Source of the DNA: Antedon mediterranea
Lineage: Eukaryota; Animalia; Echinodermata
Length of the DNA stretch: 64,000 nucleotides
Direction of reading: 5' to 3'
Assembly (NCBI RefSeq): GCF_964355755.1
Contig: NC_092678.1
Span: forward strand, 16,287,881 to 16,351,880
The position numbers and the translations under genes are program-made. This document shows, piece after piece, positions 9,777 to 64,000 of the stretch (positions are counted from its first letter, which is position 1; each line of letters opens with the position of its first letter). Under the pieces are notes generated by a model that had not been told where the DNA came from, did not search any database, and saw nothing but the letters and a program-made list of their open reading frames with translations.

Positions 9777-12470
9777 TTAAGTTAGTTTTATATAATTTTG
9801 TTTATTTCTTAAACGTGGTATTAATACAATTATTATTGCACTTAAAAGTGCAGTTACAAATATTATCACAAATGCAACCAGCCAGGCAAACTGGGAGCTA
9901 TCAAAGGAAACGGCTGTGACGCGTTGAGAATTTGAAAAGAGTTCGATTGTATAGTTTGAAACGCATTGACAACATAGTGGAAACGGTTCGCATCCGTCGT
10001 TGCAGCAAGCTTGAAAACGACCAACAGCAGATCGATGTAGTATACTCTCACCGTAAGTTAGGTCACTCTCTTCTAATAATCTAGCAGTGTGTAACTGATT
10101 CAATACCGACTGCATATCTTTATCTTCACCAATGTTTACACGTTCTTCTGGGTCTAGGTGGAGATTGTAAAGTAACGAGGGCTCGTGTTGACTAAGTGGC
10201 ATAGCGTTACGACACCTAGCATTATAGTCATCTAAATCTTCAGAGATCGTCGAAAAAGATTCCAGTATTACGGCATGCGCTTTGTACTGGTTGTAACGGT
10301 AGGCAAATGGGCTTTTCCATGTATTATTGAAAAACATCAAACTTGATCTAGGGCTCTGTGGCAAAAATGGAAATAATTCACATGCTATTTAATTTCATTC
10401 CAAACACGAATAAATTATATTTTTGTAAAAAATTGCATGAGATAAATATCATGAAATATAAACATGAACAAACAATAATTTGTCATATGGTAAGAACCAT
10501 AAAATACCAAGAACGATTGAAGTATGTCTTACGGTTTGGTTTCTTTAGGACTTTTTGGACTGAACGGATCACGAAGAATTAAGGACCAAACCCACTCCTA
10601 ACTTTATCTGTGTCATATACACCGTCACTGCCGATCGATGTAAGTTAGGCCTTAGCGATTGATCGCTTTACGATCATTCATTTCATCAACCATCATCATA
10701 AGCACCCTAATTCATTCATTTGTTCATCCTCATCTCAGTTGCTGTTTTCTTCTTCATCATTATCAATATAAAACCAAATATCAATTTTGTCATCGTGGTT
10801 ATCATCAGAACCGAGAAAGAATATATAATACACAAACCTTTCCCATATTAAAGAGCACATCACTTATGTCGTAACCATCAAGCTGTATATTGTCAACTGA
10901 TGACCCAATTAAACTTGCAATCGTTGGAAATATATCAAGATGACTGATCAATTCCATAGATATTCCAGGAGTAATTCGACTTGGCCAATACACCACACCG
11001 GGTACTCGTGTACCACCTTCAAACGCAGAAGATTTTCCACATCGAAATGGTCCGGATGAACCACCTTGAAAACCAGAAGATTTGTCTGGACTGAAAAATA
11101 ATTTGTGATTATATTTGGCTATGTTTCTTTCCTTGTTGGTCATCATTTTTTTTAAATTGTTAATTAGGGTTAAAAAAAATCAGAAATAATAAGTGAAACT
11201 TATCTATCTTTATTTAATAACCCATGTCAAAGTCCTGAGATATTATCTATTTTTGTAAAGAATTTAATAATTAAATTATTTCTTTAATTTTTCTTTTCTT
11301 CTTAATCTTTTTTATCTTAGATGTACATTACAAAGTTTTTGTGGTTTGTAAATAAATTTATTATCTCAAATGTGGTTGTTTTTTAATTTATGTTAGAATC
11401 TGGACATTGCATAAAGCTTACAACTCTAAGTAAAATTCCTAACAGATTGTATTAAACTTACCCATTGTCTGACGTAAATAAGAATAAGGTGTTGTCAAAC
11501 TGTCCGATTTCTTTTAATTTAGTGATGATATCTCCAATTTGCCAATCCATCTCAGCCAAGGAATCTGTATAATCTCCACCTAGGGTAGAATTATGAAACC
11601 GTGAACTGGCAAAATGTGGAACATGAGGTTGCACAAACCAGTACATCAGGAGAAATGGATTACCACTTTCACTAAACTCTGTAATCCAGCTTCTAGCGGC
11701 TATGGTTTGTCTTTCAATCAGTGTTAACAGATTCACTGGTTGCTCAATAATCTCATCTTCTAAAAATAGTGGAAGAGGAGGGTCCGTACTTGTACAATCT
11801 GCTGTTAAACAAGGTACATCTGGAAGAAAACATATCTGGGGCGGACACCCGCTAAGGTAAACCGAGACAGGAATGCCAAAAAAGTGATCGAATCCATGAT
11901 GCTTTGGTAGGAACTCTCTGTTGCGACCAACTCCAAGATGCCACTTGCCAATAAGAGCAGACTTGTAACCCTGGTCGGCGACGAGCTCGGCGATGGTCGT
12001 CTCGTTTAATGGAAGTCCCAGTGGACTGTTTAGCCTCAGTGTTGGCTGGTGCTCATTGATCCAGAAACCACTCCGTACTGGATATCTACCAGTCAGCAAA
12101 CCAGCTCTAAAGATACATTTTTAAAGAGAAGTATTCTATAATAAAGACATTATTACTAACCAGTTTTTGTAAAGTGTAAGCTTTGGAATGGACAGATCAC
12201 AACAACATGGATGGATTTCACATACCTTGATGGACTACAGATGGAAGCCGAACTGTAAAACTGTGTAAGTTTCATGCCGTCTCGATAGAGTATATCAATA
12301 TTTGGAGTGTCCGAGATCGGGTTTCCTGTCGCCTGTAGATCACCGTAGCCTAAATCATCAGCAAGAAATATAACAATATTCGGTTTGTTCTGAGGCCGGC
12401 AAACTGAACATTCCAACAAAACTAGTAACAAACATATGCGAAATATCATGTAAGTCATTGCAGCTTTCAT
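9777..12470 (-). CDS. ARSA: Arylsulfatase A-like sulfatase, copy 2 (4 exons, about 573 aa), with C-terminal TM helix
   Basis: Exons 12470-12226, 12106-11462, 11090-10838, 10355-9777, GT-AG with frame intact. Same catalytic motifs as copy 1 and over 90% identical by eye. Confidence 0.9.
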
Positions 12471-12915
12471 TATTTTTATCAACGCACCTAATGACTGAAG
12501 CAGACCACCGATAGGCTTATGTTTGTTTTATACCATGTGAATATCCTGTCAATTACAACACGCACGTCACTCGATGAACATTTTCTTAAATCGTAATCTT
12601 TCAAGATATAACTTGAAAATGGTTAAGTCTACCAGTACATATATTAAATACTTGTGAAAAGTAGACCTAGTTGAAAGTCGTAAACAATTTAATTTAAAAA
12701 AAAACAACCTTTTTTATTGCACCGCCGTGTAGGCTATAGCCATATTAAGTATAACTTAAACAACAATGATCTTATTTCTTTGCAGTTACCCTAAAAAAAC
12801 CCTCTTTTACAAATTAATCATTTCTCACTAGAGACAGAATACAACATTTTCTTCTTTTTATAGTAGTTTTTTATTATATTTTTTTTTTCTTTTTGTAAAA
12901 ATAGAATGATCGAGG

Positions 12916-14029: not shown

Positions 14030-14470
14030 AAAATTAAAAATAAAAAACAACAAAAAACAACAAAGAAGGGGAGAGCAGTCGCAAGCTCGCAGGGGAGACA
14101 ATTAAGAATTTAATAATTTGATGAAGTAGGGTATTAGGGCTATTATTATTATTAAATATGGATGTTTTAGACGCTAGCTGGGTAATTTTGTTTTTATTTC
14201 TTAAATTCCTACCATGACAGATATGTCTGGTCGGTGGGATTAATTTTGGGGAGATACTCAGCGAACTTGCGACAATGCTCCACCCTTCTTTGAGCCAAAG
14301 CCTCTAATTTAAGAAATTCAAGGGCACCAGAGTAAGAAAAATAATCGTTGCCTAACATTATACGGCAAGCCCTCTTTTGTACATTTTCAATACAATCGCT
14401 TAATCTACAAGTCAAGCCAGAATTCCAAACAACATCAGCATACTCAACAACTGGTCTAATATAATTATAA
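14030..14470 (-). mobile_element. CR1/L2-group LINE 3' fragment
   Basis: YIRPVVEYADVVWNSGLT...IENVQKRACRIMLG...Y..AL..L.LE.L..RR is the typical post-RT region. Confidence 0.75.
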
Positions 14471-14499
14471 TATACAAAAATATACAGAAAATAACAATC

Positions 14500-16280
14500 A
14501 GCCAGCTGCAATAGTTTTTGTAGACTTTGCCAAGGCGTTTGATTCTATAGATAGAAATTTAATGTTTATATGTCTGAAAAAATATGGTTTTGGACAGTCA
14601 TTTATTAACTGTATAAAAACTATATATACAGATACGCAATGCTTTGTAACCCACAATGGTTGGATATCTGAAAGATTCAATATGAGATGTGGTGTAAGAC
14701 AGGGTTGTCCTTTGTCTGCTTTACTTTTTTTATTAATTGCTGAGATAATGGCAACTAATATAAGAAAAAACCCACTATGTAAAGGAATAGAATTATCTAA
14801 AGTAGAAAATGAAGATCATATTGTTAAAATAGCTCAACAATATTTACAAAGGATGAAATTAGTTTAAACCATTTTCTGTGTGAAATTGAAATGTTCTGTT
14901 CAATATCAGGTTTAAGGTTAAATAAAAGTAAATCGAAAGGAATTTGGATTGGAGCAAATAAAAACAAACAAACATCGCCATTTAATATCAAATGGACCAA
15001 AGAACCAGTGAAATTCCTTGGAATCTACGTAGGGTCTGATAAACATACTTGTGTTAAACGAAGTTGGGATGATACAGTTTTAAAATTAGAGAATACATTA
15101 AAACTATGGGAAAAACGATATCTTAGTGGACTCTCTGAAGTTGAATTGGGTTAAGAGACTGTTAAATCCTAACACAGGTATTTGGAAATGTATTCCAGAC
15201 TACTATATGCATACAGTTGATTATACTGCGAATTGTAGTAAATTAAATACTGAAGCGCATACTAAATTTAAAAATATGCCAGTATTTTATATGAATATGT
15301 TGAAAGCAGATGTAAAGTTAAACAATATTGTATATTGTTTAGAGCCGCAAAATTGTCACAACACTTATGGGAAAACAAATTTATAACATCAATTGAGGGA
15401 AAATCTCTATATTTCAACACCTGGTTAAACTATGGATACAAAAGAGTAAATGATATAGTTGTTAATAACAGGTTATTGACTGCAGCAGAAATTATTCCAA
15501 CTCTGTCGAATAAACAGAACGGATTAATTGAATACTTTGCAACAATAAATGCAATACCTGATATATGGAAAGAACAAATAAGGTTGGAAAATGCACGCAT
15601 AGATATACAATTAAGAGAACATAATATATTTCATAATAGGATAAGATCGTCTTACTATTACAAGCACTTTATAAATGATATATGTATTATTCCAAATCCT
15701 CAAATGAAATGGGAAATAGAATTTAGAGATGAAATCATTGACTGGAATGAAATATGGAATAGAAAAGTATGTAGAATGAAACACATGGTAAAAGTAGCTC
15801 AATTTAATTTTAAGTTGTTACATCGAATCCTTATATGTAAAAAAAGACTAAAAAGATGGAACAACAGACAAATGTAATAAGTGTAAGAATCATATAGAAA
15901 ATGAAAAACACTTATTAATTGCATGTAAAACTATTCAACCAGTCTGGAAAAGGTTTAAAGATATGCTGGTTCAGTGTCTTCCAAATGAGGTTGCAGTACA
16001 GCAAGACTTCCCAAAGTGGGTTAATGTAATTTTGGGAACAACAAACAAACTTGTAAACGAATTAATTTCAGTTTTTACTTTTTGTATATATAAATCCTCC
16101 ATAATATATAAAGAACTAGAAACGACAGAAAAAAAAGAATCTGCAAATATTTGGGGGCTATTTAAAAGTGAAATTATAAACCTCATAAATAATGAGTATT
16201 CGTATAACTTTTATACTGCTGATCAGAAATGGAAAAATAGTAAAGACAGGATATTTGACCTATTGAATAATTAAAATATA
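14500..16280 (+). mobile_element. Frameshifted L1/Tx1-type LINE ORF2 (RT to C-terminus)
   Basis: VDFAKAFDSID, KYGFGQSF, GVRQGCPLSALLF, SGLRLNKSKS, FLGIYVG, KLNWVKRLL, FNFKLLHRIL, ENEKHLLIAC across several frames. Confidence 0.85.
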
Positions 16281-31173: not shown

Positions 31174-34100
31174 ATGCTGTCCAGTCAGGAGTCGTATGAG
31201 ATGATGGCATCCAATTCCCAATTCCGTTTCACCAAAGAGCAGCTTAAAACGCTGATGCATGTCAAAGATGTTGCACGCGCTCTGCAAATATTCCAGCAGA
31301 AGTTTGGAGATGAAAAGATGTTATGTAGTGGATTGAATAGTAACAAGGATGACGGTAAAACATGTTTCTACTTTAAAAGTTATCATACAGTTTCACAAAC
31401 AGGTGGCTTATAATAAAAATGATACAGTAGAAATAAAGGGACACATTGAATTGAGAATGTTCCCTTAATATGGATCTCCCAAAGTGTGTTTTTAAGTTTT
31501 ATAATTTAATAACCTGTGTTTTCGTCTTGATGCAAGGCATGAACAAAAGTGCTCAATACAATAGCAGAGAAAAATAGATAAATGTTTTTTTCGATGAAAG
31601 GGGAAAAGTCAGGTTAATTAGACCTATTTACCATGACCTTTTTGCTCCTAGTTTTAGTAAGAAAATGGCGATTCATTTGAACCCTCAGTTTCAATGTTCC
31701 TTTTAGTTGAAATTCAGAAAATAATGAAAACATATTTAAAATCCTATCTTGATATTATCTTTTCAATTTTACTTACTTAAAATTATACATTTTATTGCTT
31801 TATGGATATTTCAGTATTATTTAGAAACAAAATGTTAACTTACATGAAACAGATTGAGATATAACATAACAAAATGCAATTTCAACTTTTATCTAAGGGC
31901 CTGTTCATGCCTATGTACTGTGTGCTTTTGTATCGTACACGCCGTGCAGCTCCATATATATAATAGGACTGTACCAGAAAAAGATTAGTGGAAGCCACCT
32001 CTTACGACACTGATCTTTCGTTCGTTATGATAACTTGCGTTACAAGATTAGTGAACAATGGTTATGATACGAATGTCATGCATCAACGGTCCTACAACCA
32101 ATCAAATTTGCTCTTGCATACCAGATGGTTGCAAGTCTGAAGACTGTTTAATATGATGCTAATTATAATATAACATTGTTTGCCATACTAAAGTATAAAC
32201 TCCATGAATGTCAACATACCCTAAATTAATTGGGCTGTTTTAAGTGCATGTAATTACTGTCAATTATTTAATTAAAAGAAATCTATTTTAACGACTTGTA
32301 AAATGAGATTCCATTAGATAGGTTGGGCCTACACAGCCAGCATAATTGTCTGTAAAATTAATTTAATTGGTCAATTTTATTGGTAATTGCTAATTGTTTC
32401 GGTTAATTGCATTGAGAATTCTCAATACCTTTTTGCTTATTACGTATAATATTGTTGATTCCCATCATTGCTCATCAATTGAAAAGCTAGATTTGTCGCT
32501 CGGACTTTACTAACAAAATAAATGTGAATTTTTGCCAATAACCAAATCTAAAATTTAAAAAAAAATTTTTTGTTGGGCAACAAAAAATGTTCTCTTTTAT
32601 AAATAACTGAGGTTCAACGGTAGCACATGCTTCTATTTTGTAGGAGAATTCAATTCAGTTTTCACTTTCATTGAAAAAATGTATATTTTTGCTAATTGTG
32701 ATGTCTGTGATGTTAGCTATGAGTGCGACTTATTATAGGTCTGACTAGTAATAAAGCAATATCAACAACATCATTATGTGTTTTAATTGCTCACCTGCGC
32801 TGTCTGCAGGAGTTTCGCCTCTGTCTGAATGAATCTGATCAACATTCTATTTTACCATTTCAGTTTTATGTACATTATTGATGTTGTAGGAGCTTTAGAC
32901 ATATACGTCGCTGTCAATAAATATTTGTTTAAAGTACATTTTAACCAAATCCAGATTGCTTTTTTTTTTGGTGAAATACTACAAACAACAAAAGTGTATT
33001 TAATTAATCTTGAAGTAAATTGAAGTATCTACTTAAAATAGCGACATCCTTCTATCAATCTTGTCAAAACAATGCAAAGTCAATTTTTGTTGTTTGACAC
33101 ATTTACTGTTAGTGATTGGTATTGTTGTACAAGGACCATGTTAACATATTTTACTTCAGTTACTGCAGTACCTACATTTTGTTTACTAAACACTTCTTTA
33201 TGATATTTTTCTGGAGATAATCATACACAATGTTTGTGACTCGTAAACTTCTATATACAGTAATGTACAACAGTGTATGATTTAATCAAATATGTTTCTG
33301 TATCTTTGTTACTAGAATTTAATTGTTTACACCATATGTTTTTCTTAAATTTGGATTTTACACTGGCAGTTAATAAAATTTAAGAGTTTCACAAAATCTA
33401 CAAACTTTTCAACAGCAAACACAAACCAATATATCTCACATTAAAGTAAATTTTGTAAATAAATCTTCCAGATTCCCTGAAAATGCCATCTTCTGTAAGT
33501 TTTCTCCTTTTAATTCCAAAAATAGTATAATGTAAAATAAAAATGTATTTATTTTTTGTTAACTTTAGGTATACATGAAACAGACGCACATTTGCATAGG
33601 GAGAGATTCGGAGAAAACATACGTAAAACCGAAAGAGCTAGAACAAGCATTTCAAATTTAATAGTTACGACATTGTTTGAAAATTGGGCATTAGTCTGTG
33701 TTTTTATTCTAAGTCTGTTGTCATTTGGTGTTTCATTTTTGCAGGAAAATGAAGGTAAGTATAACTTTTGAGCGCGTTTCCTTGCATACTGCTTTTAACC
33801 AAAATGTTATTCTTTATTTGAAAAACCCATTGTCTAACCAACAATTCTGACTATTTAAGTTTTTTTCCTATCCAATTTTTGGACATTTAAATGGCATATT
33901 CAACAACAAACATTTTTTAGGGGGACAATATATCTTTAAGTACAAAATAATATTATATCCTTAAGCTCTGTCTACACTATCAAACTTTATGTGACAAAAC
34001 ATGTGATGTGCCCATATATGGACATGATGATGTCATATCCGTACCATATTTTGGCGCATCACTACCATATTTGTCACATCACTAGTTTGATAGTTTAGAC

Positions 34101-40100: not shown

Positions 40101-43100
40101 AATGTATGATGTTAGGTTGTTTCAATGTATAGAAGTATTACCTACATATTCACTGTAATTAACAAAGTGTGTATGATTACCAAAAAGCTTGCTAAAGAAT
40201 TTGCATAAACAGGTGTCAAGAGTAAAAAATATGTAATTCTACTGCTTATTTTGTCATTCCTACAATAACTTCGTGACTATAGCATGACATGGAGTTTTTG
40301 TTTCATGAAGAGACAATAACATTTACCCTTAGCTTACTTTCAGTTAATTAACACGGCTGTAATTAAACTACACTTTATAGTACAGTAATTAAATACTTTA
40401 CAAGGGGTGCAAATAAAAAATCTAAAAGATTCAACTTAAAATTATGTTTTTTATGAAGCCCTGTACTTGACAACATTTTATGTTAATTGTTTTTATAAAA
40501 CCACTGCACGGATAGTGTCACTTCATGGCGTCACTAACGATTTACACCACAAAAAACCCTATCGAACTAGTTTTCCTGCATCAGTGTTGAGGTCAATGTT
40601 CCACACACAGTAATCATACGACAGACACGGTTATGACTTAACGATCAACTTTTAATGAGTGCTGTAACTACAACAATAGAGAACAACAAATAGAAGTATG
40701 GCGGTAATAAGAAGCATAATACCAGACGTAACAGAATTGGCGCTGTAGTTAATATTAGAAGGTCTTGTCGGTCTAAATGTACCTAAAGTTTCACAAACAA
40801 TATCGGACTTTCATCTCTTGTTGCCTTTCATTTACTGTTACAATTCAAATTAATCCATTCTGCAAAGCTGATAACATTTGCTCATTCAAAGTTTACTCAT
40901 CGTACCATAAAACAGCTGAGTTTCAAAACATTAATAATTGTAATTTTCTATTGCACCTAGGTGTGTCTGTGGTGGTTGTATTTTTCCTATTATCCACAAT
41001 TCGTTTTAGCATTGAAGTGTTTGTAAGACTACAACTTCATTGGACTTCGTATTACATAAAGGACTATGTAGAGTTTTTAATCATATCACTTATGTTGTAT
41101 ATATTTATCCGGCCAAGAAATCAAGTTTTAGTTGTTAAAAGAGCTATTGCACATTCCTTAAAGGTAAGTCTGTTTTCTTTATGTAAATAATTTGCTCTTG
41201 CAAAAACTTACCAGTTGAAAGTTTTCCAGATTTGTATCCTATCAGATAGCGAATCATGAAATACCTGCTGAAAATAGCTTGTGAACGTTTATATTTTCAG
41301 ACTCCTGTAGCATATTTTTAAAAAGGTAACTACTGTACACAAATATTTTCATAAACTGCACAGTTTACTAGCAGTAATGTGTGCACTTTATTTTGATATT
41401 TTGCTAAAAAAAAAGTAAAGACAGAAAAGATAGCTATTGTATTTGTTTTAAACCCTTTTATTGATAATAAACTTTGAGTTGTTGAGTTGTAGATTCCAAA
41501 AAGGTGAAACCCTATTTTCACAAAGATAGTGATTTTGAAGTAAAAGTACATCAATAGCGACATCAATTAGCCAAATTAGGTCACATTATAGTTTTTACTA
41601 TAAGAGCTTTGAATTTGGGATAGTAAATGAAAGATACAAAAAAAAAGTTAGCAGACCATGACAGATGTGTAATGTGTCTTTAGATTTAAAAAAAAGGAGT
41701 AACAGCTAGCCTACTAGGACCTACTTCTTGACATTGCAAGCTGTGCTCTGGTTGGTTTGAAAACGAACTTTACATCAACAGATCTCTATAGTATAGAGGC
41801 CTATTGGGCTTACATGCATTCAGATTAGTCTGTCAGTAAAGCGTGGTTCCCACAAGGGACGCAACATAGCTCAACCTACGCAATGTAAGAAAATACCCTT
41901 TCCATAATTGGGTTTGCCTCCGTCTGTCTCAAAATCAAACCTGCTTTGTTGCATGTCAATGTTAGTTGTCATAGACTTTGACATGCATACTTGCTTTTGT
42001 TTGCAGCACCTGCATTGTCAGTTCCCACTTGTGATTACAAAATATAGCACTTTGCGTCTATATGCTGCATTGCGTTCTAGTGAGAACCACACTTAAATTA
42101 CTGTGTCATTCATTTACTGTACCACAAACAAAGGACTCTTCTGTACTTGGTAGCTAAACTCAATTTCAATGTTAATAAATGTGCTAACTTATATTTGGAT
42201 ATAGAATAGCAATCACGCAAGGCGTCACAGATTCTGTATGTTATTGTATGTGGCCTATAATACAGTGCTATTTTGATTCGCTGCGAAGCTGTTGATTTGT
42301 GGTATACAGAGTCAAAGTACATCGTAGTGCATTAGATTGTTATATACAGTACATTAAATTAAGGTATTCCTTATGTACTGTATATGTCTATTTACAGGGG
42401 ATGTTGGAAGACAATTTATTATTTCGCAACCAAGATGCATGTGAGCTAATGGGTAACATCACATGTATTTGTAGCAATAAGACGGGTGTGCTAACACAAA
42501 GCAATATGGAGGTTAAAAAATGTTACATCGCTGACAGACTGCATGACTTTGAGAAAAGACAGAGTATGTCCGAAACAATTGGACCTTGCGCCAACAGATA
42601 TCTTGGAAAAATTAACCAAGAAATCATGAAGCTTCTTCAAGAAAGTATTGCAGTTAACAGTGAATATGCCACGCAGATATATGTAAGTGATGTGAGGGTA
42701 GTATAACTATATATTGCATCATTACAATTTATTTAATATTTTGAAGGTCTAACAGTATATATAACACATGCTATCAAGCACAAGTAATTGAAAAGTAAAA
42801 TGACATGTTGTAAACTGGTTTTAACTGGTACTTGTTGACTTTAATCTGGAAATGTTTTAATACTTAACTTACTAGTTTACATCAGTTATTGTATCATTAA
42901 ACTAGTTACTGCAATTAACTGGCTTTAACTGGAATTTTCTTATTGGTTTTTTAAACTGGCACCTCTAGAACATTTTTTTCATAATTTTTTTTTAGCAAAT
43001 TGGAAACAAATTGCATCAAGTTGGAGACCAAACTGACTGTGCATTGTTAAACTTTATCGGTGAGATCTGCTACAGGACCCTTCGTAATAAATGGCCAGAA

Positions 43101-46100
43101 GAAAGACTGGAACAAGCCTACACCTTTGATTCGAATAGTAGATTCATGGGTACATTTATCGAAACAGAGGATGCAAATGCTGAACCAATATGGCGACTGT
43201 ATGTTAAAGGCGCTGTTGAAATTATATTCAATAGGTATTCCATTCAATCTTATATAGCTTTAATAGCACACCCATTAAGTATATCCTTGTTATTTGATGG
43301 GTTAATTTCATATTATTATAACATTGGTTATTTTGTTCTATTCAACAGTAACATTTCTATCCAATGGTTCTATTCAACAACAAGCTCATGACAATTTTTT
43401 ATTGTACAATGGTATATGTTGATAAAAAATATTGCAATGAAATCCAACCAGTTCTAGCCTTTGACAAATGATTGATAGCAAATTGTTGTGTTGATAAACA
43501 AATAAAAACCAAAATAAATGATTCAATAAAGAATATCATGTGTTCATTGAATGGAGAGATTATTTTCATTCATTGACATTTTCAAATCTATTTTCCAGTT
43601 GTTCTTACATTTTGGATGCTGAAGGACAATCTCAAGAGTTGACCAGTGAGCTGCGTGATGAGTTGAAGACAACGTTTAAAGAGATGTCGTTACCAGGGTT
43701 GCGGATGGTGTGTCTAGCCTATAGAGACTTCGCACAAAAACCGAGTTTGAAGTATTCTACCAAATATGACAATGTGTCGCATTTGACGTTTATTTCTGTT
43801 ATTGCTCTGTCTAATCCAGTCAGAAATAACGTAAGTATAGAGATAAAAAGACTTTATCACTTTAATATATTCACTATGAGGTAGAATTTAAATATTTTAA
43901 TATCAAATTAATTATCTTTACAATAAAATTGATCAAATGTATGTTTTTTAACACAGTCCAGATCTGCAGTTGAGTCTTGCCAAGATGGAGGTATCAATGT
44001 TAGAATGCTCACTGGTGATGATATGAATGCAGCACATGATGTTGCTGTGGATACAGGTATACTAAATGTAAAGACAGATGACTTGGCGATGGAAAGCCGT
44101 GATTTTAATCAAAGTTTATCACAATCAAGAGGCAAGGTATAAGATTCTGTTCATTAACATATTAGTATTAAATGTATATTTACTTTTATTGAGAGAAATA
44201 ATGTTGCTTGAGATGGTATACAAAGTATTTTTTTATGGATATTCTTTAATTTCAAATTTTATTTATTTATTTATTTTACAACCACTTTCATTGTTTTGTC
44301 AATCATCTCTCAAGTTTAAAATCATCATCCACCATCATCAAAAGCACCATCATCACTAACACCACCATCATCATCATCATCATCACCAACACCACCATCA
44401 TCATCATTAACTGCCTTATCACCAGCATCAACATCAATAACACCATCATCATCACCTACCACCACCATCATCACCTACCACCATCACCATCATTTGCATC
44501 TACACCATCACCGTCATTACCACCTACCACCATCATCATCACCTACCACCATCATCCTCACCTACCACCATCATCAACACCACCGTCATCATCAACACCA
44601 CCGTCATCATCATCACCAACACCATCATCATTATCATTAACTGCGTTATCACCAGCATCAACATCAATAACACCATTACTATCATCAGCACCTACCACCA
44701 CCATCCTCACCTACCACCATCATTACCACCTACCACCATCATCATCACCTACCACCATCATCCTCACCTATCACCATTATCCTCACCTACCATTATCATC
44801 ACCTACCACCACCATCAGCAGCACCTACCACCACCATCAGCACCTACCACCGCCATGATAACCTACCACCATCATCATCATCATCACCTACCCCTATCAT
44901 CATCACCTACCACCATCATCACCTACCATAATCATCATCATCATCACCACCTACCATCACCATCAGCACCTACCACCATCATCATCACCTACCACCATCA
45001 TGACCTACCACCATCATCATCATGACCTACCACCATCACCATCATTAGCACCTACCACTATAATCATCACCTACCACTATCATCAACACCACCATCACTA
45101 TCACCACCATCATCAACACCACCTCCATCAACATCACCACTACCACCTTCATCATCATCATAAGCAGCAGCAACTACCCACCATCATTGTCATCATTACC
45201 ACTTGCAACACCCTCATTTCAACAACTGCATCACTAACACTACCTGCATCACCACCAACTTCATTATCATCATCAGCACTGGTATCACCATCACAACTTA
45301 TATCACCGCCATTACCAACCCCACCTACATCACCGATATTCTGCTTTCATTCAGTACAATATCATGCAGCGATTAAAGGTTCTTTCAAGAGCTCACTTTG
45401 ATGACAAGGAGTGCATAGTGGGGTGTGTAACTGGTGCTAGCAGACGTGAGGTGTTAGCTGTAACAGGACGTCGCAGTAAAGAGGCTGCTCTCTTTGAAAA
45501 ATCACACATTGGTCTAGCAATGGTAAGACACTATTACTTAATCAAAGGTTCAGTAGATGCTAAATTTTGACAACTTAAGGTATAGTACATACTGAATGCA
45601 CATTTGTATGTATATTAATATTAGTTATGACCTTGTATTCAGGTCAGTAATCAGATCCTCCAATTAGATTAGAGCTTGCTTGCTTACAATCCCACATCCT
45701 CTCTCACAGAGTACCATGATTTTTATTTAAATAAGAAAACCGTTGCCGCTGTGGTACAAAGCTTTGCTTCACCTGATTAAGGATCAGTTATGTTTTAAAC
45801 CATTGATTATTGCGCTATATTTGAATATATTAGAGTGATATTCTTAATAATTATGTTAACAGGGTACCACTGCAACACTAGATGCCAAGGGGGCAGCAGA
45901 TATAATCCTGCAAGATGACAGCTTCCATAGCATCAAGCAAGCTGTCATGTGGGGGCGCCATATTTGGGATTCAACAGCAAAATACTTGCAGTACCAACTC
46001 TCATTGGCATTTTCCCTTGTGTTGGCGGTAATAATAGGTATAGCATGTTCAACAGTAAGTATATCTAATTATTTACAGTAAAACTCATACGTTGCATTCA

Positions 46101-49100
46101 TATACAGTACACTTTACGATGGCAAAATAAAAGGATTTATGTGGTCAACTTGAAGATAATCTTTAAGGGGACAAAGAACTTATAACACAAGAATCTCCTG
46201 TCTGTCAATTATGCATTGAAAATAACATGGTTATAAAGGTTACACAGGGCACCGCCATTCTGACAGCGCCCTCACCAAAATATAAAGGTAAAACACTAAT
46301 ATTCCTGTAGAGATCTCCATGACAAGGATATGAAACTTGCACATGCATTCCGGAGCTGAAACGTCCCTGGGCAAAAAAGGCCTAAATGCATACTCTTCGA
46401 ATACACAGACATATTTAGGGCGCACTACTCCATGATTAAAAATATTGCCATCTATTGACATTCTATTCTACAATGCCTTTTGAAATGTTACCTGTTTTTG
46501 ATGGACAGGATATTTATGTGTTATATTGTAGGTATTTTGGCCATATAGATATTCTGTTGTAACATCCAGTAACTATCTCAATTGTCTTATTAATAGAGGC
46601 TTAAATCAATCTCATACTCTAAAACCTTAGATTATTTGAAAGGAGTTTTGATGTACAATATTACATTAAAAACAATGCCTAAATATTTCAACCTCAGAAC
46701 AATATATATAGTGCTAGGTTGTGAAACATATTATTACCCCGGTCATTTTTGGATCAGACACGTATGGAAAAAAAATACAGTTAGTAGTCAGCGCAAATTT
46801 TTACCTTACCAGGTAAAGTGACTTGCCTAAAGATACAACCACGCTCTCACGATCAGTAGTCCAACGTTCAACAAACTCCTCATACTGTAAATCTATACAA
46901 ACAGCAAAATAAAAGAAGCATCTGTTGAAACGTGTTCATGTTTTTATTTAGGGAACACCATTGAAATCTTGTCACCTTCTTTGGCTTTACTTCATCATCA
47001 ACTGCGCTGTGATTATCATTTTAATGAGAGAAACCCCGAGTCAATCAGCCATGCAACGTGTGTCGCAAGGCTGGTATAAGCCATTGTTGTCTCGTATCAA
47101 ACTACGTTTTATAATCGGACATGGTGTTTATCAGCTTCTTGTTATCTTGATTATTTATTTACGTGGTAAGAATAATTTGGTTTCTTTTTTGTTGATTAAA
47201 GATGTATTGTCTCCCTGAAAAATAATGTTTTACTTTTTTTTGTTGCATATGCCATTTTAATGTCACAATGGCTATCCACTTTGACCAAAAATTGGATCTA
47301 AACCAAATTTATTTACCTGAAAAAACTTTAATTTAGAGCAAAAAATTACTGCTGCCAGCCAATGGATTTTTGGTTGAATTTAACCATTTATTATATTATT
47401 TTATAAGTGAGAACATTATTTTTTTTTTCATTTTTTTTCTACGGAAGTGATTAACTTTATTAAAACTACAAAATAACCTATTCAAAGTCTGATTTAATTA
47501 ATCTTCATTTTTCATGTTTTTGGGGGACAATATATCTTTAAATGAATTGCCAATTCAACTTCAGTTCAGTAAGCGCTAGTTAATTATAAGACTAAACATG
47601 TTGCTGTTATGGTGCTAATTATAACGACCTTGATTACAACCCTGAGAGGTTGAAAACTCATCTTTTTTCTAATTTATATTTTGTTACATTTTTATCTTAA
47701 TGTGCTCTTATCAGTTTGGAAAAGTGCTTAGCAATTTGTTATTAATTCCTAATATACAATTAATCACAAAGAAATAAGTTGCGTTAAATCGTTCCTATTA
47801 ATATTTTTTTTGTTTACAGGGGATAATGAAATGTTATTTGATATCGATAATGGACAGACAACAGGTGTTCGTTCTGCTGCTTCCGTACACATGACACTAG
47901 TTTTCAACGTGACCGTTCTTATGACAGTTGTCAACGCATTCAACACGAGGAAGGTGTACGGTGAAAGAAACATTGTAGCTGAGACTGAGGGCAGCCAAAT
48001 AAAATGGATTATATTCTTTTTTATATCAATTTCATTTCAAGTAAGTTCAGTATTAAAGGGTAGCTCCGTGTTAAAAATATCTAGTGTTTATAATAAAATA
48101 TTTGCAACATCTAATATAAAAAACCCACTTTATTTTTGACAGCAGAATGATCAAAATAAGCCTTTTCTTTCAAAAGTGGCGCTTTAAAAAAAGCACTTAT
48201 TTCCTAATGCATGTTCTGTTTCACTGTTCTCAGAAACTTAAGTGAGGTTATAATAAATGTGGTTTCAAAAGTTTATATTTAAAAAATAAACAATAGGAGT
48301 TTTTAACTGGGAGCTACCCTTAATAATTACATGTGAAGGCATTTTTCAGTTTTATGTCAGCTAACCAGATGAATGGTCCCAGGACGGGAAACGCTACCCC
48401 TACCCCTACTTTTCCGAAAGGTTCTCTGGGTTCTTTAAAGTGCACATGATCTAGATGTGTACACTCGACCTCCTGTTTTAATCCGAGAAGACTTGTTCTA
48501 ATTTACGATCCAATAATAAGATGCTTTTATTTCAACCGAAATCTCATCACTCGTTTGGAAATCGTGCTTTTTCTATTAATGCTCCACGTCTATGGAATGA
48601 CATTCCTGAATGGATTAGGCATTACCATACAATTAATTCTTTTCAAAAATCATTAAAATCATACCTTTTTGCTGAGGCATATGGTATTAATGAAGCATAA
48701 AGAAACAGTGTTGTGATTAGCGCCTTGAGCACTTTTAGTGGGTATGTGCGCTATATAAATTGCTATATTATTATTATTATACAATGTAAGGAGTGCCTTG
48801 AACCTGTGCCGATTGTATTTATATATGGTCAGCCACTCAATTGTATGTTTTTTAAAACAAAGGAATATAATTAAAGCTATTTTCTCTTTACAGATTGTAT
48901 TCATAGAGTTATTTCAGTCGCCATTCAACACAACTTCACTTCATTTATCCGAGTGGATATGGTGCTTTGCTATTGCATTATCGACGCTTCTTTGGCATCA
49001 AGTAATCATTTCTATTCCAACATCAAGAAACGCAATAACGCCAACAAAACAAAATGGGACTGGATTGAGTAGGAGTGTTCGGTTTACCAGGGAGATGGAA

Positions 49101-49127
49101 GGTCCAGAAGTTGAAGTCCATGTTTAA
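31174..49127 (+). CDS. ATP2B: Plasma-membrane Ca2+-ATPase (P2B/PMCA)-like protein, 16 exons, about 1100 aa, predicted catalytically inactive
   Basis: Exons 31174-31354, 33569-33754, 35875-36102, 37031-37153, 38285-38359, 39697-40038, 40961-41163, 42398-42682, 42996-43234, 43599-43830, 43957-44136, 45355-45522, 45863-46054, 46952-47165, 47820-48040, 48894-49127. All are GT-AG with compatible phases and total 3303 nt with no internal stop. PMCA-type stretches: LVVGD, GDVVPADG, DACELMGN.TCICS.KTG, KGAVE, GLRMVCLAYRDF, VRMLTGD, ADIILQDDSF.SI..AVMWGR, IIGHGVYQL, RKVYGERN, W.QVI.SIPTSR. Confidence 0.88.
31897..32221. mobile_element. Short Harbinger MITE related to 23530-24509
   Basis: TAA-GGGCCTGTTCA...AACATACCC-TAA, sharing AAAAGATTAGTGGAAGCCACCTC.TACGACACTGAT with the larger element. 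Confidence 0.7.
33963..34107. mobile_element. MITE of about 145 bp
   Basis: Inverted ends AAGCTCTGTCTACACTATCAAACT and AGTTTGATAGTTTAGACAGAGCTT. Confidence 0.65.
34890..35527. repeat. Intronic tandem duplication, 330-bp period, two copies
   Basis: The sequence starting TGTCTTGTGGATGAATTAAATTAGCC at 34890 recurs at 35220 with few substitutions. Confidence 0.9.
37170..37800. repeat. Intronic minisatellite, 65-75 bp units, about 9 copies of alternating types
   Basis: AAACTGTCCCTTTAA(A/G)GA... units begin at about 37172, 37243, 37310, 37384, 37451, 37520, 37586, 37656 and 37721. Confidence 0.9.
44320..45335. repeat. About 1 kb of CAC/CAT/CTAC-rich simple repeat filling intron 11 of the ATP2B-like gene
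   Basis: Degenerate (CATCATCACCTACCAC)n. The poly-His ORFs at 44078 and 45000 are by-products. Confidence 0.9.
47199..47537. mobile_element. TTAA-flanked MITE (Kolobok-like)
   Basis: TTAA-AGATGTATTGTCTCCC ... GGGGGACAATATATCT-TTAA, with AG...CT termini. Confidence 0.7.
48500..48780 (+). mobile_element. L2-clade LINE extreme 3' end
   Basis: SHHSFGNRAFSINAPRLWNDIPEWIR....INSFQKSLKSYLF followed by a GCGCCTTGAGCAC...GTGCGCTATATAAAT..(ATT)n tail. Confidence 0.8.
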
Positions 49128-55826: not shown

Positions 55827-56195
55827 TTACTTGGAGCTGGTGTATTTGGTGACAGCCTTGGTACCCTCAGAGACGGCATGCTTAGCCAATTCACCAGGAA
55901 GCAATAGACGGACAGCGGTCTGGACTTCCCTGCTAGTGATGGTAGATTTTTTGTTGTAGTGAGCAAGACGAGATGCTTCTCCTGCAATACGTTCGAAGAT
56001 ATCGTTGACGAAACTGTTCATGATTCCCATGGCTTTGCTGGAGATACCAGTGTCTGGGTGAACTTGCTTCAACACCTTGTAGATATAGATGCTGTAGCTT
56101 TCTTTTCGCTTACGTTTCCTCTTCTTGTCAGTAGTTCTTACAGCCTTAGCCTTACCGGCTTTCTTGGCAGCTTTTCCTGAAGTTTTTGGTGGCAT
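55827..56195 (-). CDS. H2B: Histone H2B (replication-dependent)
   Basis: [27 protein letters not shown]...AVTKYTSSK, intronless, followed by the stem-loop. Confidence 0.99.
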
Positions 56196-56258
56196 GATTT
56201 TAGTAACTACGATACGATGAGTAAAGTAATCAAGTGAAGATTTTCATATCGCCCAGTG

Positions 56259-56326
56259 TTTTTATTGAGTTTGATATGCAAATGAGGTTTTCCAGTTAGG
56301 CTCGCTTGTCGACGCCATTCAATTGG
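56259..56326 (-). promoter_or_regulatory. H2B promoter: octamer box, CCAAT and TATA-like element
   Basis: Minus strand CTCATTTGCATA (ATGCAAAT at 56276-56283), the known H2B-specific octamer. CCAAT at 56322-56326 and CAATAAAAA at about 56259-56267. Confidence 0.75.
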
Positions 56327-57315
56327 TTGTTGACTGCGCGCAATTTATTGAATGTACAAAACAAAAGCTTACTTGTTCTTTCTTTGTTAACATTTGGAGG
56401 GAAGAAGACAACTAAAACACCTTATCTTTTTACAGTACTGTATTGAGTATTTGTAATTTTTGTATGTATGCTTCATTTTGTACCTACCACCAATACAATG
56501 GTGTACTTTACGAACACAAAAGGTAGGATAAAAATTGAAAATGTACCTCACAATGTGAACTATTTGGTGTATATTGTAATAAATAATCTGATATCTTGTC
56601 CTTACATAACATAAATACAGTACAACTTCAAGTGGTTTTTCAATATACCGTATTAATAAATAATATCAATCAATTGAAAAAATAATTTTTTTATATAACA
56701 AAAAAATGTTTAGTAAACCGTTTTTAATAATGTATGAAAACAACCAGTACATTTATTTTATTCTTATGTGCGTGTTTAATAAAATGGTGTGGTACGTCAT
56801 TCATTTTAAAATAGTAAAAAATGTAATTCTCATCCCGAATACTGTATAGTACATGTACAAATAATTTCAAGAGGTGGAAAATGAAAGGTTGCACAGTACA
56901 TGTATTATTATGGATTAGTCAAATGGGAACAGACAAAACACATGTACAGCAGAGCAACAAGGCACATTCATTTTGATTCGCTTTAACTGTAGTACTTTGT
57001 GTATTTTATATGTAAACTGACTTTGGGGTTGGGTTAACCAACTCAGCTATAGAGTGAGTGATTATAGACGGAATAAAAAACGAAATGAAAGTTTTAATTT
57101 ATATAGACAATTCATGAGAAAAAAATTTGCAATTACAGTAGTAAGTATACTTAATGTATGTACTGTATTTTTACCTGTTTTTCATATTAGATTATATTGT
57201 AGGCCTATCAGTTTATATACTAAGCTTGACTTTATGTATATTAAATATTATATGGTAGAGAAACACAACAAATAAAGTAGACAATTGCTAATTTCATCTC
57301 TTTTGTACATATTGC

Positions 57316-57331
57316 GGCTCTGAAAAGAGCC
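57316..57331 (-). terminator. Histone 3' stem-loop of H3
   Basis: GGCTCTTTTCAGAGCC, with downstream CAAAAGAGAT. Confidence 0.95.
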
Positions 57332-57359
57332 TTTTGGTTTGAGAAAACGGAGAATTGTC

Positions 57360-57779
<420 letters not shown>

Positions 57780-57821
57780 TCAACTAATAAAATTGATATC
57801 AAAATTGTTTAAATTCGTGCG

Positions 57822-58050
57822 TTTATAAGGACCTATGGTTTCAAGGGTAATTAACTACAAGCCATACGATTGGCTAAATGAAAACTTGAATTTCTTTGTT
57901 ATTTAAACAGGAATCAAGTGATTGGCTAAATTTTACAGTTTAGAACACGTCCGCAGTTATGTTTTCAATGTGGCGGGAGTTCTCTCTGACTAACAGATAA
58001 ACAAAACGAATTCTATTGGTTAAAATCTATGGCTAAGAACACGTCCGGAG
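57822..58050 (-). promoter_or_regulatory. H3 promoter: TATA, three CCAAT boxes and a duplicated AGAACACGTCCG
   Basis: CTTATAAA at about 57822-57829, ATTGG at about 57869, 57921 and 58015, and AGAACACGTCCG at about 57942 and 58036. Confidence 0.6.
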
Positions 58051-59109
58051 CTCACCAAGATATTGCGCCTTTTTTAAGAGTTTTTGGTTAATAAAATTAG
58101 ACGTTTCTTTGTCATTTTATATACAGTATAAGTGAATAAAGTATTTTGTTTCTTTTTTTACAGTACATAATGTTATTTGTATTATTATTGTTATATATAT
58201 TAAATTATGTTATTTAATCTTAATTTTTTTATGTTTTTTGGGATACTGTATTTTAGGCTTCTGCTATCTGATGATAATGTAGAAATTAAAAACGAACATT
58301 TGATATATCCATTTCTCTTTTTACTTTTAAATCAGTCTTATATCTTTGCTTTTTTATCCAAACGACGATGCTCTTTTTAAATTTCATTTAATTCATTGTT
58401 TGTTGCAAACATGTCACTCTTCTTTGTGTAGTCAATTCTGTTTATAACTACAGTATTTATTTGTACTATGTTTATAAAAAATGATATATACAAGGTTTTA
58501 TGTGTTCTATTTGTATGCTTTTTCAGGGCAAGAAACGTGGTTTATTTTTGTGTTAAAAGTGAACATTTCATTCGTACTTTGTATGTTCTATATACTTCTT
58601 CTTTCTTGGAGATCCAAGAAACAATTATTATATATGGCCTTTGGTCCAAATAATATACAATGTAATACAATATTAAATAAATATCAGTTGAGTGCGTTTA
58701 AAAATTCTGTTCTATGTTTAGTTGTTTATATAAAAGGAAAACATATATTTAGTTCTAATATCTGAATAAAATGGACAAACTAAAGTGAAATGATATTCAT
58801 CTTCAATTGATTGTAAAGCACATAATTTGCATATATACAGTATTATATAACATGGAAATACAGTATATATCTATCCATTAAAATTAGTGTAATACTGTAA
58901 ATAATGTCGAGGATAATAAACAACACATACAAGAAACTGTTTTATCTAATTTGTAGATGATGGATGGTAAAAGCAAAATATTGAAATAAACCCCTTTATT
59001 TTGAAGATTTCACACATAAATTAGCTTTTTGGTTTTAAATGTGAACACAGTACTGTATTTATATTATATTGTTACTTTGTGCTAATTCAATTTCTTTTGG
59101 ACAAGTGGT

Positions 59110-59125
59110 GGCTCTGAAAAGAGCC
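59110..59125 (-). terminator. Histone 3' stem-loop of H2A
   Basis: GGCTCTTTTCAGAGCC followed by ACCA, with downstream CAAAAGAAAT. Confidence 0.95.
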
Positions 59126-59160
59126 GTTTGGTTTGAGAATGCTGTTAGCAGTACGATGAT

Positions 59161-59550
<390 letters not shown>

Positions 59551-60416
59551 TTATTGTATTTCGGTATATTCGAAAATAATGATGATTCAAACAGTACCCG
59601 GTCTTTTATAGCCGCCTGTGGTTCGCCCTACAGAAATCCTGTACTGATGTGACCAATCACGGTCGTCCGCGCTGTAGGCGGTAACCACTTCTATTGTGAT
59701 TGTTCTATTGGGTAGACGTTCTTTGTTATTTTGGCGCAAATTTACAAAATATCATCAATACATACAAATACTGTACATTCATAATATTTAGCAGCAGGAA
59801 AAGGTAACATTTTCAGCTGATTTGCACTTTATGATAACAGAAACACATTACAAATTTAACAACGGTTAAATTTGAATTCATCGTAACATTTTAATCTGTA
59901 AATTTGAAAAACAATGTAAAGTAAATTTATATTTATAAAACAATTTTTTCATAAATGTAATATACAAGACCAGTTAAATATCCAAAATTCAACCTGATCC
60001 TACCAAAGTACATACTACTACTGTATTACAAAGTACCTTATCGATTTTATGCTCACATAAATAATGATTAACCTGGTAATAAATATGAACTATCCCCCAC
60101 TGAAACAATTACAAGCATGTACTTTTATGAACATTTGGCAAACACCATGCATAGCTTCTTAAAAATAATAAATAACATTGTGAAAGAGTCCAAATTATAT
60201 TTGTTATGCAATAACAATATTATATAGGCCAATGTGAACATGAGCATCATGATGTAATTATATTGTTAAAATATGTTTTCGGATACTCAAATAATTTACT
60301 TGATGAAGAGTGTAAAATAGTAAAATAGTGTGAAAATATTTTGGATAGTTTTTGTAAAAGATACCTAAAAAGAGCATGGAAATTTCGAAATGTTGTTATC
60401 TACTTTGCTACATTAA

Positions 60417-61042
60417 AGACCCCTTCCCTGCAATTTTGGACGTTTTTTGGAAAATAATACATATATATCACTTTAAAAACATTAAACCATGTCATTCCTT
60501 GTCTTAAATGTACGTTTTATGGTAAATTATGATAAAAAGTGAGAAACAATGCACTACCTAAGTAGCTCGCGGCGATCGACCTCTCGTGGACGGTCTCAGG
60601 CCTAGCCTAGCTAGGCTTAGTTTTGTAGGCCTAGCTGGTAAACATCGGTAACGTACGAACATCGTACGCTAGCTATATACCTAGCCTGACGTTGTATAGT
60701 TGCTGCATTAATTGTCTTTCTATTTTTGCCAGACTCCGTTGATACAAATTGGGGAAAACCCGGTATTTTCGCTGAAAAGTTAGGAGTCTTCCATTTGTTT
60801 TGGCTTCACGATCGATCGAAAAGTGGGCGAATTACAGGTGAAAAACAACAATATCAATCCGCGCGCAATGCATTTTGGGATTTATAGCGGGCCGCTATAA
60901 TTATTAAAATCGATTTATTTTTCACATTTTTAACCGTTTAAAGACGAAAAAAGTTATCGCAATAGGACCATATAGTATTATTTTTACATTAAATATAGTT
61001 TGTGATCTTAAATTAGATCTAAAAAACGTAGGGAATGGGGCT
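60417..61042 (+). mobile_element. Second copy of the 626-bp Kolobok-like element, in the H4-H2A spacer
   Basis: TTAA TSD, same length as 50460-51085, with about 9 substitutions counted by eye. Confidence 0.85.
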
Positions 61043-61560
61043 TTAAGTAAATTGAAAAGGAGTGGGGAAGGAGGTTGGTGGGTTTTCGTAATAAGTTGTG
61101 TTTATCAGTGGATTTTATTTAATACACTTTTACTACAGTATATTTAGTTTTGTATTCATTTGTGTAAAGTAATGATCTACTGTATGTATCGATTTAAATT
61201 GAGGGATTGGTGGGGGAAGAGGGGTAGGATAGGGGTTGATAGTTGTTTGTTTTTGCCTTTATTTTATACTTTTCTATATATAATTAATTGTTAAATTGTT
61301 ATTGTGAAGGATGCACCATTGTGCTAAGTGTGCCACCGATCTAAAGGTGTAATTCCAAATAAATAAATTGTTTGCATGGTGAAATCAAATGTTAATATAG
61401 ACACACTTTCATTTAATCTACGACATTTATTTTGTTATACAGTATCAATTGTAATGGCTAATGTGAACATGATGTAGATTCACGTTGTGAATCAATGTTG
61501 ATTTGGATTATTCATATTATATATAGATATTAGCAAACAAATCTCTTTTGCACATGTGGT

Positions 61561-61576
61561 GGCTCTGAAAAGAGCC
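61561..61576 (-). terminator. Histone 3' stem-loop of H4
   Basis: GGCTCTTTTCAGAGCC followed by ACCA, with downstream CAAAAGAGAT. Confidence 0.95.
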
Positions 61577-61602
61577 GTTTGGTTTGAAATGTGTTGAACT
61601 GC

Positions 61603-61929
<327 letters not shown>

Positions 61930-62831: not shown

Positions 62832-64000
62832 ATTATTATTATTATTATTTATTGCCAAAAACCAGTTACAAAAAAACAAAACACAGAAACTAAGGGAGTA
62901 GGCAGGAACCTAAAAGTGAACCTAATCACTATAACAAGAGTTCAGGTTCCGTACTCCCAAAGTAACAACAATGATATAAAATAAACTATATAAAAATATT
63001 TAAAAAACAAATAGACGAATCAACAGTGTCAATATAAAATAAACGGATAAAATACATAATAGTCGATTCAACAAAGTCAATATAAAACATGTGATTTAAG
63101 TGAATTTAAAAATATTTGAAAACTGTCTAAAATTAAAGAATTTTTAATCATTTCCGGTAATTCTTCCCACAACCTAGGGAATATATTAATAGCGGAATGA
63201 TGAAGACAATTGGTTCGAGCATAGTGATGAATGAACTTAAGTGTATCAAGGTGACGGCCATTAACAACTAAAGATTGACGAACACTACTACAATCAACCG
63301 TTCCAATAAGTGATTTACAAACAAAGGATAACAGAAGATAATTTCTTCGATTAGATAGTGTAGGCCAATTTAGCTTAGTGAGACGTTCCTCGTATTCCAT
63401 TTCACCTCTTGTTTGTTTAAGGACAAGCCTAGTAGCCCTTCGCTGGACTGCCCCGATACGTTCTGTAAGTTTTTTGGTTCGAGGCAACCACGCTGGGACA
63501 CCATATTCAAATCATCAAATTCAATGAGAGCTTTATAGAGTGAGAAAATAGCTGAAGGGGATGATCCTCCTGCAATACTAGTAATAAAACCCAACATTCG
63601 ATTTGAACGAGAAATAATTAAGTTTACATGGTCATCCCAAGTAAGTTCACTATTAATCGTGACCCCCAGATGACAATGACTAGATACGGATTTAATAGGC
63701 AAGTCATTTATACGATAAACAGGTCTATACTCTTTCCTTGATCTTGTAATGTGGAGAACCTTGGTTTTATTTAAGTTAAGCTCCATTTCATTTAGATCAC
63801 ACCAAGAGGAAAGCCTGATCAGATCGCACTGAAGAACAACTTCATCGTCTACAGTAAATATATTTCTATAAATTATCGTGTCATCGGCAAACAATGCACA
63901 TGGAGAAATAATAGATGAGGGAAGGTCATTTATAAATAAGTTAAAAATAAGGGGTCCAAGTACGCTGCCCTGTGGTATGCCAGAGGTAACTGGGGATGAT
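62832..64000 (-). mobile_element. CR1-group LINE (RT to 3' end), continuing beyond the window
   Basis: VTSGIPQGSVLGPLIFNLFINDLP....CALFADDT...HLGVTINSELTW, one frameshift near 63500, VQRRATRL...YEERL, and an (AAT)n tail at about 62832-62850. Confidence 0.9.

Follow-up and report, generated by a model that had tools for sequence, protein, structure and literature searches.

Does a gene annotated as a plasma membrane Ca2+-ATPase (PMCA) still encode a pump when its catalytic and ion-binding residues have been replaced? The question is raised by a gene at 31174-49127 on the + strand of a 64,000-nt stretch of the genome of the feather star Antedon mediterranea, a crinoid (NC_092678.1, 16,287,881-16,351,880; the whole stretch is referred to as the window, and all coordinates are those of the window). 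An earlier note on this DNA had described 16 GT-AG exons giving an uninterrupted frame of about 1100 amino acids (aa), with the motifs of the pump replaced. Splicing by coordinates confirmed the structure: 15/15 introns are GT-AG, and the chained exon phases give 1100 codons followed by a single terminal stop at 49125-49127. The motif readings of the note also proved correct, without exception, on resplicing and alignment. The product is letter for letter P0001 of Antedon mediterranea, named 'plasma membrane calcium-transporting ATPase 2-like' by NCBI. Judged from its sequence, this protein appears to be a PMCA by descent but, by its catalytic and ion-binding features, not a pump.

The A-domain motif reads NETAPLKTG (aa 217-225), and the Glu of TGES is lost (LKTG at 222-225). 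The phosphorylation motif is CSNKTGVLT (aa 471-479), in which the Asp that would take the phosphate has become Asn473. SNPVR (aa 692-696) stands for EDPVR, the Asp of which is lost, and TGRRSKE (aa 795-801) for TGDGTND, so that both Asp residues of GDGxND are replaced. Transmembrane segment (TM) 4 contains FIRPRNQ (aa 427-433), which puts Arg431 at the position of the TM4 Ca2+-ligand Glu, while TM5 reads YQLSLA (aa 858-863) and TM6 WLYFIIN (aa 889-895). On alignment to mouse PMCA2, the equivalents of the Ca2+-site residues E412, N869 and D873 are Arg431, Tyr891 and Asn895. Seven of seven key residues (the phospho-Asp, the TGES Glu, two GDGxND Asp and three Ca2+ ligands) are thus replaced; none of the seven was replaced in 252 of 276 compared proteins. 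At these columns, 65 other P2 ATPases show 92-100% conservation of the canonical residue (alignment A1: D, 95%; TGES Glu, 100%; PEGL Glu, 95%; GDG Asp, 100%; ND Asp, 100%; TM6 Asn, 98%; TM6 Asp, 98%).

Mutation of the phosphorylated Asp to Asn stops phosphoenzyme formation in SERCA, Na,K-ATPase and H,K-ATPase (PMC13322241), and PMCA2 has a single Ca2+ site, E412/N869/D873, at which E412K strongly lowers transport (PMC12488499). By analogy with these D-to-N and E-to-K mutants of other pumps, the crinoid protein would form no phosphoenzyme and transport no Ca2+. Because the one change blocks the phosphoenzyme and the other strongly cuts transport, we hold with high confidence that Ca2+ pumping by this protein is very unlikely. 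The coding features are listed below.

31174..31354, + strand: exon 1; ATG; aa 1-60, N-terminal A-domain helices; matches P0001
33569..33754, + strand: exon 2; aa 61-122, TM1
35875..36102, + strand: exon 3; aa 123-198, TM2, start of the A domain; weak PF00122 match
37031..37153, + strand: exon 4; aa 199-239, A domain; NETAPLKTG replaces DESSLTGES at 37084-37110
38285..38359, + strand: exon 5; aa 240-264; junction 5/6 present in an RNA contig
39697..40038, + strand: exon 6; aa 265-378; linker between the A domain and TM3, including a conserved basic segment, and the first part of TM3; K367/K370 correspond to PMCA2 K344/K347
40961..41163, + strand: exon 7; aa 379-446, TM3-TM4; Pro430 kept; Arg431 (41116-41118) for the Ca2+-ligand Glu
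42398..42682, + strand: exon 8; aa 447-541; phosphorylation motif CSNKTGVLT
42476..42478, + strand: AAT codon (Asn473) for the phosphorylated Asp; same in the spliced contig of run X7
42996..43234, + strand: exon 9; aa 542-620, N domain; PF13246 match (E 4e-12); Phe585, Arg590 and Lys612 kept
43599..43830, + strand: exon 10; aa 621-698; Arg656 kept; SNPVR for EDPVR at 43810-43824
43957..44136, + strand: exon 11; aa 699-758; TGD hinge kept
45355..45522, + strand: exon 12; aa 759-814; Arg770 and Lys776 kept; TGRRSKE for TGDGTND at 45463-45483
45863..46054, + strand: exon 13; aa 815-878, TM5; YQLSLA at 45992-46009
46952..47165, + strand: exon 14; aa 879-949, TM6-TM7; WLYFIIN at 46982-47002
47820..48040, + strand: exon 15; aa 950-1023, TM8-TM9
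48894..49127, + strand: exon 16, coding part; aa 1024-1100; TM10, then a 39-aa tail that lacks the calmodulin domain, and the stop

An acceptor for exon 11 at 43962 was rejected, as it broke the frame and gave 26 stops; the correct acceptor, 43957, is used by the RNA contigs. The RNA contig over exon 16 extends to at least 49393, which corresponds to 3' untranslated region.

The overall architecture of the pump is retained. The 1100-aa product has ten hydrophobic segments and the A, N and P domains of a P-type ATPase. An AlphaFold2 model (pLDDT 79, pTM 0.77) was of low confidence only at the ends, in the exon-6 linker and at 502-509, and its best Foldseek matches were the mouse PMCA-neuroplastin structures (E 1e-66). 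The nucleotide site of SERCA is lined by Phe, Lys, Arg, TGD and P-domain Lys residues, and D-to-N pump mutants bind ATP with higher affinity. At the level of sequence, the crinoid protein keeps the ATP-pocket residues Phe585, Arg590, Lys612, Arg656, TGD 717-719, Arg770 and Lys776; of these, Phe585, Lys612, Arg656, TGD and Lys776 are common to the four crinoid proteins, which represent two paralogs (A, the gene in the window, and B, described below). The columns invariant among 18 canonical pumps are kept at 18/22 positions of the N domain in both paralogs, at 9/24 positions of TM3-4 (6 in paralog B) and at 0/4 of TM1-2. At the PtdIns(4,5)P2 site (PMCA2 K344/K347/Q351/N841), Lys367 and Lys370 are kept, and Ile374 and Ala863 are found in place of Q351 and N841. 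The calmodulin-binding autoinhibitory tail is missing, with 39 aa past TM10 as compared with about 160, and neither PF12424 nor PF00702 was matched in a Pfam search.

The gene is transcribed and spliced. In run X7, which comes from a separate study than the DNA, one contig joins exons 5 to 11 at six predicted junctions, with 890 letters 5' of exon 6 as compared with 793 coding, and another spans exons 12 to 16 without a break. In a second organism (run X9), contigs join exons 12-13-14 and exons 15-16. Together, spliced contigs support 10/15 junctions (5/6 to 10/11 and 12/13 to 15/16), six of which were seen as GT..AG joints or an equivalent cut and four by contiguous contig coordinates. None of the listed sequencing runs is catalogued as RNA; the RNA origin of the runs was read from the spliced contigs, which omit rare variants. 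Because the X7 contig has zero differences over exon 8, an assembly error does not account for the Asn codon, nor is the codon edited in the predominant transcript. The proposals that AAT is misassembled, or is repaired to GAT by A-to-I editing, were rejected on this ground; repair is also moot, since the six other key residues are lost regardless.

Is the gene maintained, or is it decaying? In an organism designated B (run X5), 60 of the listed differences were classed, 20 of them exonic (17 synonymous, 3 replacement). Sites were counted for exons 5, 6, 12 and 13 and for the first 50 bases of exon 7; these five stretches hold 16 synonymous and 2 replacement differences, giving a ratio of replacement to synonymous differences per site (pN/pS) of 0.039 (p 8e-9), which indicates strong purifying selection. 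On the most unfavourable assumption, that the 9 differences left unlisted for two of the contigs are all replacements, pN/pS is 0.21 (p 8e-5). The sole listed exonic indel is an in-frame 12-nt insertion; listed intronic indels are of any length.

An ortholog that is about 80% identical, P0002, is present in Anneissia japonica, a member of another crinoid family. It shares NKTGVLT, FIRPRNQ, ETAPLK, SNP and WLYFI, and hence both the NKTG motif and the loss of PEGL. The segment that contains the dead site (451-486) is 36/36 identical between Antedon and Anneissia, the most conserved part of the protein. Identity is 86/93 in the A domain, 74/90 in TM3-4 and 102/141 in TM7-10, the lowest value of any membrane part; conservation is higher in the cytosolic head than across the membrane part. 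P0002 looks garbled at 786-846, where exon 13 is translated one base out of frame: in Anneissia exon 13, 18/18 differences in 54 codons fall at true third positions, and 16 can be synonymous. The NCBI model is broken at about 786-846 and at 900-910, seemingly by cryptic donors in exons 12 and 14, and the oddity of P0002 seems to reflect an error of the gene model or, alternatively, a lesion in that part of exon 12 which the model skips.

A recently dead duplicate drifting to a pseudogene, or a mis-assembled locus, would fit the very long branches in the trees described below (about 2.5 changes per column), and would also fit the broken Anneissia model round exons 12-14, where a true exon-12 lesion may lie in the skipped part. 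However, the low pN/pS, the 80%-identical ortholog in another family, the conserved true frame of the odd Anneissia stretch, the in-frame nature of the only listed exonic indel and the spliced RNA in two organisms make this explanation extremely improbable. The gene is not a pseudogene, and on these comparisons the replaced motifs are held by selection rather than drifting. The earlier note had argued for selection on a non-pumping role as opposed to decay, and had proposed checks on transcripts, on the codon at 42476, on orthologs, on dN/dS and on a modelled structure; spliced RNA in two organisms, AAT in an independent spliced contig, P0002, a pN/pS of about 0.04 and a PMCA fold with ten segments all agree with it.

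The crinoid gene does not stand alone. A second Anneissia protein, P0122, was the third match among 1.84 billion representatives; it has Asn at the phosphorylation site, lacks TGES and PEGL, and reads TGR for TGD. Its Antedon ortholog, P0278, is 76% identical. This second gene, paralog B, is represented by P0278/P0394/P0395 in Antedon and by P0122/P0270 in Anneissia, and its motifs are TNKTGV, YPS[FS]LP in TM4, TGRYIGD and WSYLLV[DN]. A and B are 31% identical and have in common NKTGV, GNIT, TGR, the TM6 Tyr and the loss of the tail; at the TM4 site B has Ser as compared with Arg431 in A. All four proteins (P0001, P0002, P0122 and P0278) have Asn at the phosphorylation site, with no other Asp in the motif. 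Paralog B is not within the 64-kb window, and is probably on the same chromosome as gene A.

In mixture-model trees built after removal of the motif columns, and without canonical echinoderm or cnidarian PMCAs, A and B joined with 100/99 support inside the animal PMCA clade. A grouping of A with vertebrate PMCAs to the exclusion of B was rejected by the approximately unbiased (AU) test (0.008). The branches to each paralog are long, and the tree program warned of long branches meeting. A count of the derived residues shared at conserved columns did not set B apart (0.24-0.26 as compared with 0.14-0.24 for eight other rows). Since this count is not distinctive, support for the A+B clade comes from the mixture-model trees, the AU test and the shared motif changes. 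We read the sequences as reflecting one loss of activity and, after it, an old duplication. Outside crinoids, no ortholog was seen among 120 listed of 230 matches, among the best 150 of 1.84 billion or in another listed 120; the next matches among the best 150 are 28-37% identical, and word searches miss distant proteins. ESM Atlas gave generic Ca2+-ATPase clusters only. The crinoid pair is apparently an undescribed animal pseudo-pump family. The dead, conserved gene of the earlier note stands, while paralog B, and the cnidarian-type group considered below, had gone unnoticed there.

What could a selected pump that does not pump be doing? As the ATP-pocket residues are kept, a non-hydrolysing, likely ATP-binding scaffold or regulator is favoured: the protein is probably a full-length, selected membrane component of this kind with a plugged ion site. 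Nucleotide would be bound in the kept N-domain pocket and not split, perhaps without Mg2+, because Arg797, Arg798 and Lys800 replace the former acidic Mg2+ loop. Arg431 would fill the empty ion site and lock a single conformation, and the role of the protein would be to organise or tune partner proteins at the membrane.

Several points weigh against this explanation. The AlphaFold2 input alignment consisted of the 65 canonical pumps, so that the model leans toward the canonical fold. The P0002 model lacks the TGRRSKE stretch, and conservation there comes only from the TGR of paralog B and from exon 12 of organism B, which has two synonymous differences. Paralog B lacks the Arg770 equivalent and the basic lysines of the PIP2 vestibule, which means that a nucleotide or lipid role common to both paralogs would not be uniform. 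Folding by itself may account for the retention of the N-domain residues, and ATP binding is a prediction from sequence.

A more specific role is that of a decoy regulator of a working PMCA, which would bind the basigin/neuroplastin-type subunit, the pump or paralog B, and so tune Ca2+ extrusion in some tissue. The subunit contacts TM10 and the TM8-9 linker (PMC6127144, PMC12488499), the four crinoid proteins all retain the TM10 W-x-W-C and W/F-H-Q pattern, and the two dead paralogs occur together in both species. However, TM7-10 is the membrane part that differs most between the two crinoids, and we consider the decoy unlikely.

The membrane domain might alternatively have become an uncoupled passive conduit for an ion, an anion or a lipid. 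The TM4 kink at Pro430 is kept, Arg431, Gln433, Lys438 and Arg439 bring positive charge to the old site, TM3-4 is well conserved between the families, and a preference for anions or lipid has been suggested for TMEM94 (PMC12134183). In TM5 and TM6, however, polar residues have given way to bulkier or apolar ones (N to Tyr891, N841 to Ala863, S877 to Ile899), paralog B has Ser and not Arg at the TM4 site, and it is the cytosolic head that is better conserved. A conduit is distinctly unlikely on this evidence, and a scaffold or nucleotide-binding regulator looks likelier than a passive channel.

An active non-canonical ATPase, or a pump for another substrate, would account for the kept ATP-pocket residues, Lys776 and KTG, and has been claimed for TMEM94/ERMA: ERMA is reported to move Mg2+ without TGES or GDGxND (PMC13322241). 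Yet ERMA has the Asp, and its D-to-N mutant loses uptake (PMC13322241), while Asn is native in the four crinoid proteins; moreover, another group reported no ATPase activity of TMEM94 (PMC12134183). Activity of this kind in the crinoid protein is very improbable.

The non-hydrolysing scaffold or regulator can be set beside known systems. PMCAs (P2B; ATP2B1-4; human PMCA1, 6A69; mouse PMCA2, 9GSD-9GTB) are its best sequence match (E 1e-157), its best fold match and, at 100/99, its clade, and have in common with it the A, N and P domains, the ten helices and the N-domain pocket. Identity to PMCAs is only 31-36%, and the phospho-Asp, TGES, GDGxND, EDPVR, the Ca2+ site, N841, Q351 and the calmodulin tail are lost. 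TMEM94/ERMA likewise combines a P-type fold with the absence of TGES and GDGxND. AMPPCP is bound by TMEM94 with micromolar affinity, and no ATPase activity was reported (PMC12134183); ERMA keeps the Asp (DKQGI) and has an occluded nucleotide pocket and a disputed activity (PMC13322241). The crinoid protein differs in Asn473, in an apparently intact pocket and in PMCA descent, its best matches being PMCAs; it is set apart here by comparison with the published descriptions of TMEM94/ERMA. In the P4 module of alveolate P4GC-beta (Cryptosporidium), the DKTGT Asp and the A-domain Glu are lost and the fold is kept, and a supporting role has been proposed (PMC13466520). Those P4-GC modules are cyclase-fused, flippase-derived and protist, whereas the crinoid protein is stand-alone and derived from a Ca2+ pump. 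Na,K-ATPase at septate junctions and C. elegans CATP-1 have pump-independent roles (PMC12125057, PMC11631496), and scaffolding has been described for PMCA (PMC13464777). The former two use a P-type body as a scaffold without pumping, but they are working pumps, studied as engineered dead mutants, unlike the naturally and permanently dead crinoid gene.

Pseudo-P-type ATPases are therefore already known (TMEM94, alveolate P4-GC), while a dead animal PMCA family is apparently new: the accessible literature, which covered few subscription journals, held no description of this gene or of such a family. For animals, evidence that P-type ATPases do more than pump has so far been drawn from dead mutants made by engineering and from TMEM94, which is disputed. 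In a PMCA that is naturally dead, duplicated and selected, the non-pumping function stands by itself and becomes open to experiment. The 'PMCA-like' annotations in echinoderms and cnidarians, often taken as skeleton-building Ca2+ pumps, would include proteins unable to pump.

Does the loss of the phosphorylation site reach beyond crinoids? The Nematostella proteins P0277/P0175, along with P0368, read CCNKTGV, yet keep PEGL and NLIMD. A pattern scan of metagenome-contig DNA, the pattern of which itself required NKTGV, gave 12 stretches: 8 long exons of this cnidarian type, 1 PMCA-like frame with stops and 3 chance matches. The cnidarian-type loci (L002, L004-L009 and L012) fall into at least 3 subgroups and have a long first exon; in Nematostella P0277 a stretch of the N domain is duplicated, giving two PF13246 matches. 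Like the crinoid proteins, the cnidarian-type proteins have Asn for the phospho-Asp, NKTGV and, mostly, GNIT before the motif, and the two full-length examples have degraded TGES and GDGxND motifs and no Pfam match to the calmodulin tail. Unlike the crinoid proteins, they keep the Ca2+ site, that is, the TM4 Glu and, where seen, the TM6 N/D.

The cnidarian-type proteins form their own clade (100/100), outside or beside the bilaterian PMCAs in the best tree. Their joining with the crinoid proteins was absent from the best trees, but cost only 3.7-5.4 log-likelihood units and was not rejected by the AU test (0.19, 0.29). A more far-reaching reading, which is rather doubtful as a whole, is that both descend from a single pseudo-PMCA lineage in which the phosphorylation site was lost before the cnidarian-bilaterian split. 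An ancient and overlooked family of ATP-sensing pseudo-pumps, Ca2+-binding in cnidarians and ion-blind in crinoids, would then sit in databases as 'PMCA-like'.

The PMCA-like frame with stops, L010:1-2816, reads INKTGVLT; its in-frame stops resemble a ciliate-type code, and it is perhaps an independent D-to-N pump. Other partly or wholly degenerate P2B pumps were seen among the matches, namely P0127 (Bemisia), P0205 (Helobdella), P0028 (Rotaria), P0049/P0055/P0061 (Papaver) and P0095 (Ilyonectria); examples are DKTGVLT with TGIS and GRETRD, TEKTG, and CTKTG without the Asp.

Within the crinoid gene, a linker segment, DAKSVGIPRIVVRSISRNYGRQ, with the basic run RKKFRKRRR (39697-39830, aa 265-305) is nearly the same in both crinoids and absent from canonical PMCAs; it is a candidate partner-, lipid- or kinase-binding site. 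Intron 4 contains a 135-bp tandem repeat (37213-37789), the unit of which holds a copy of the end of exon 4, AAACTG(T/C)CCCTTTAA..ACAGG. A 330-bp duplication (97%) lies in intron 2 (34890-35527), and a low-complexity (ATC/ACC)n tract of about 840 bp in intron 11 (44321-45161).

Elsewhere in the window, decayed LINE-like reverse-transcriptase fragments, judged by eye from translations, were seen at 14460-16274, 29211-30089 and 63077-63511; the one fragment scanned had no Pfam match. A tandem pair of arylsulfatase-like genes lies on the minus strand at about 1500-4300 and 9780-12530; they match PF00884 and PF14707, and a membrane helix is predicted at the C terminus. At 55827-61929, on mixed strands, is what we take, from the open reading frame list, to be a histone cluster of H2B, H3, H2A and H4.

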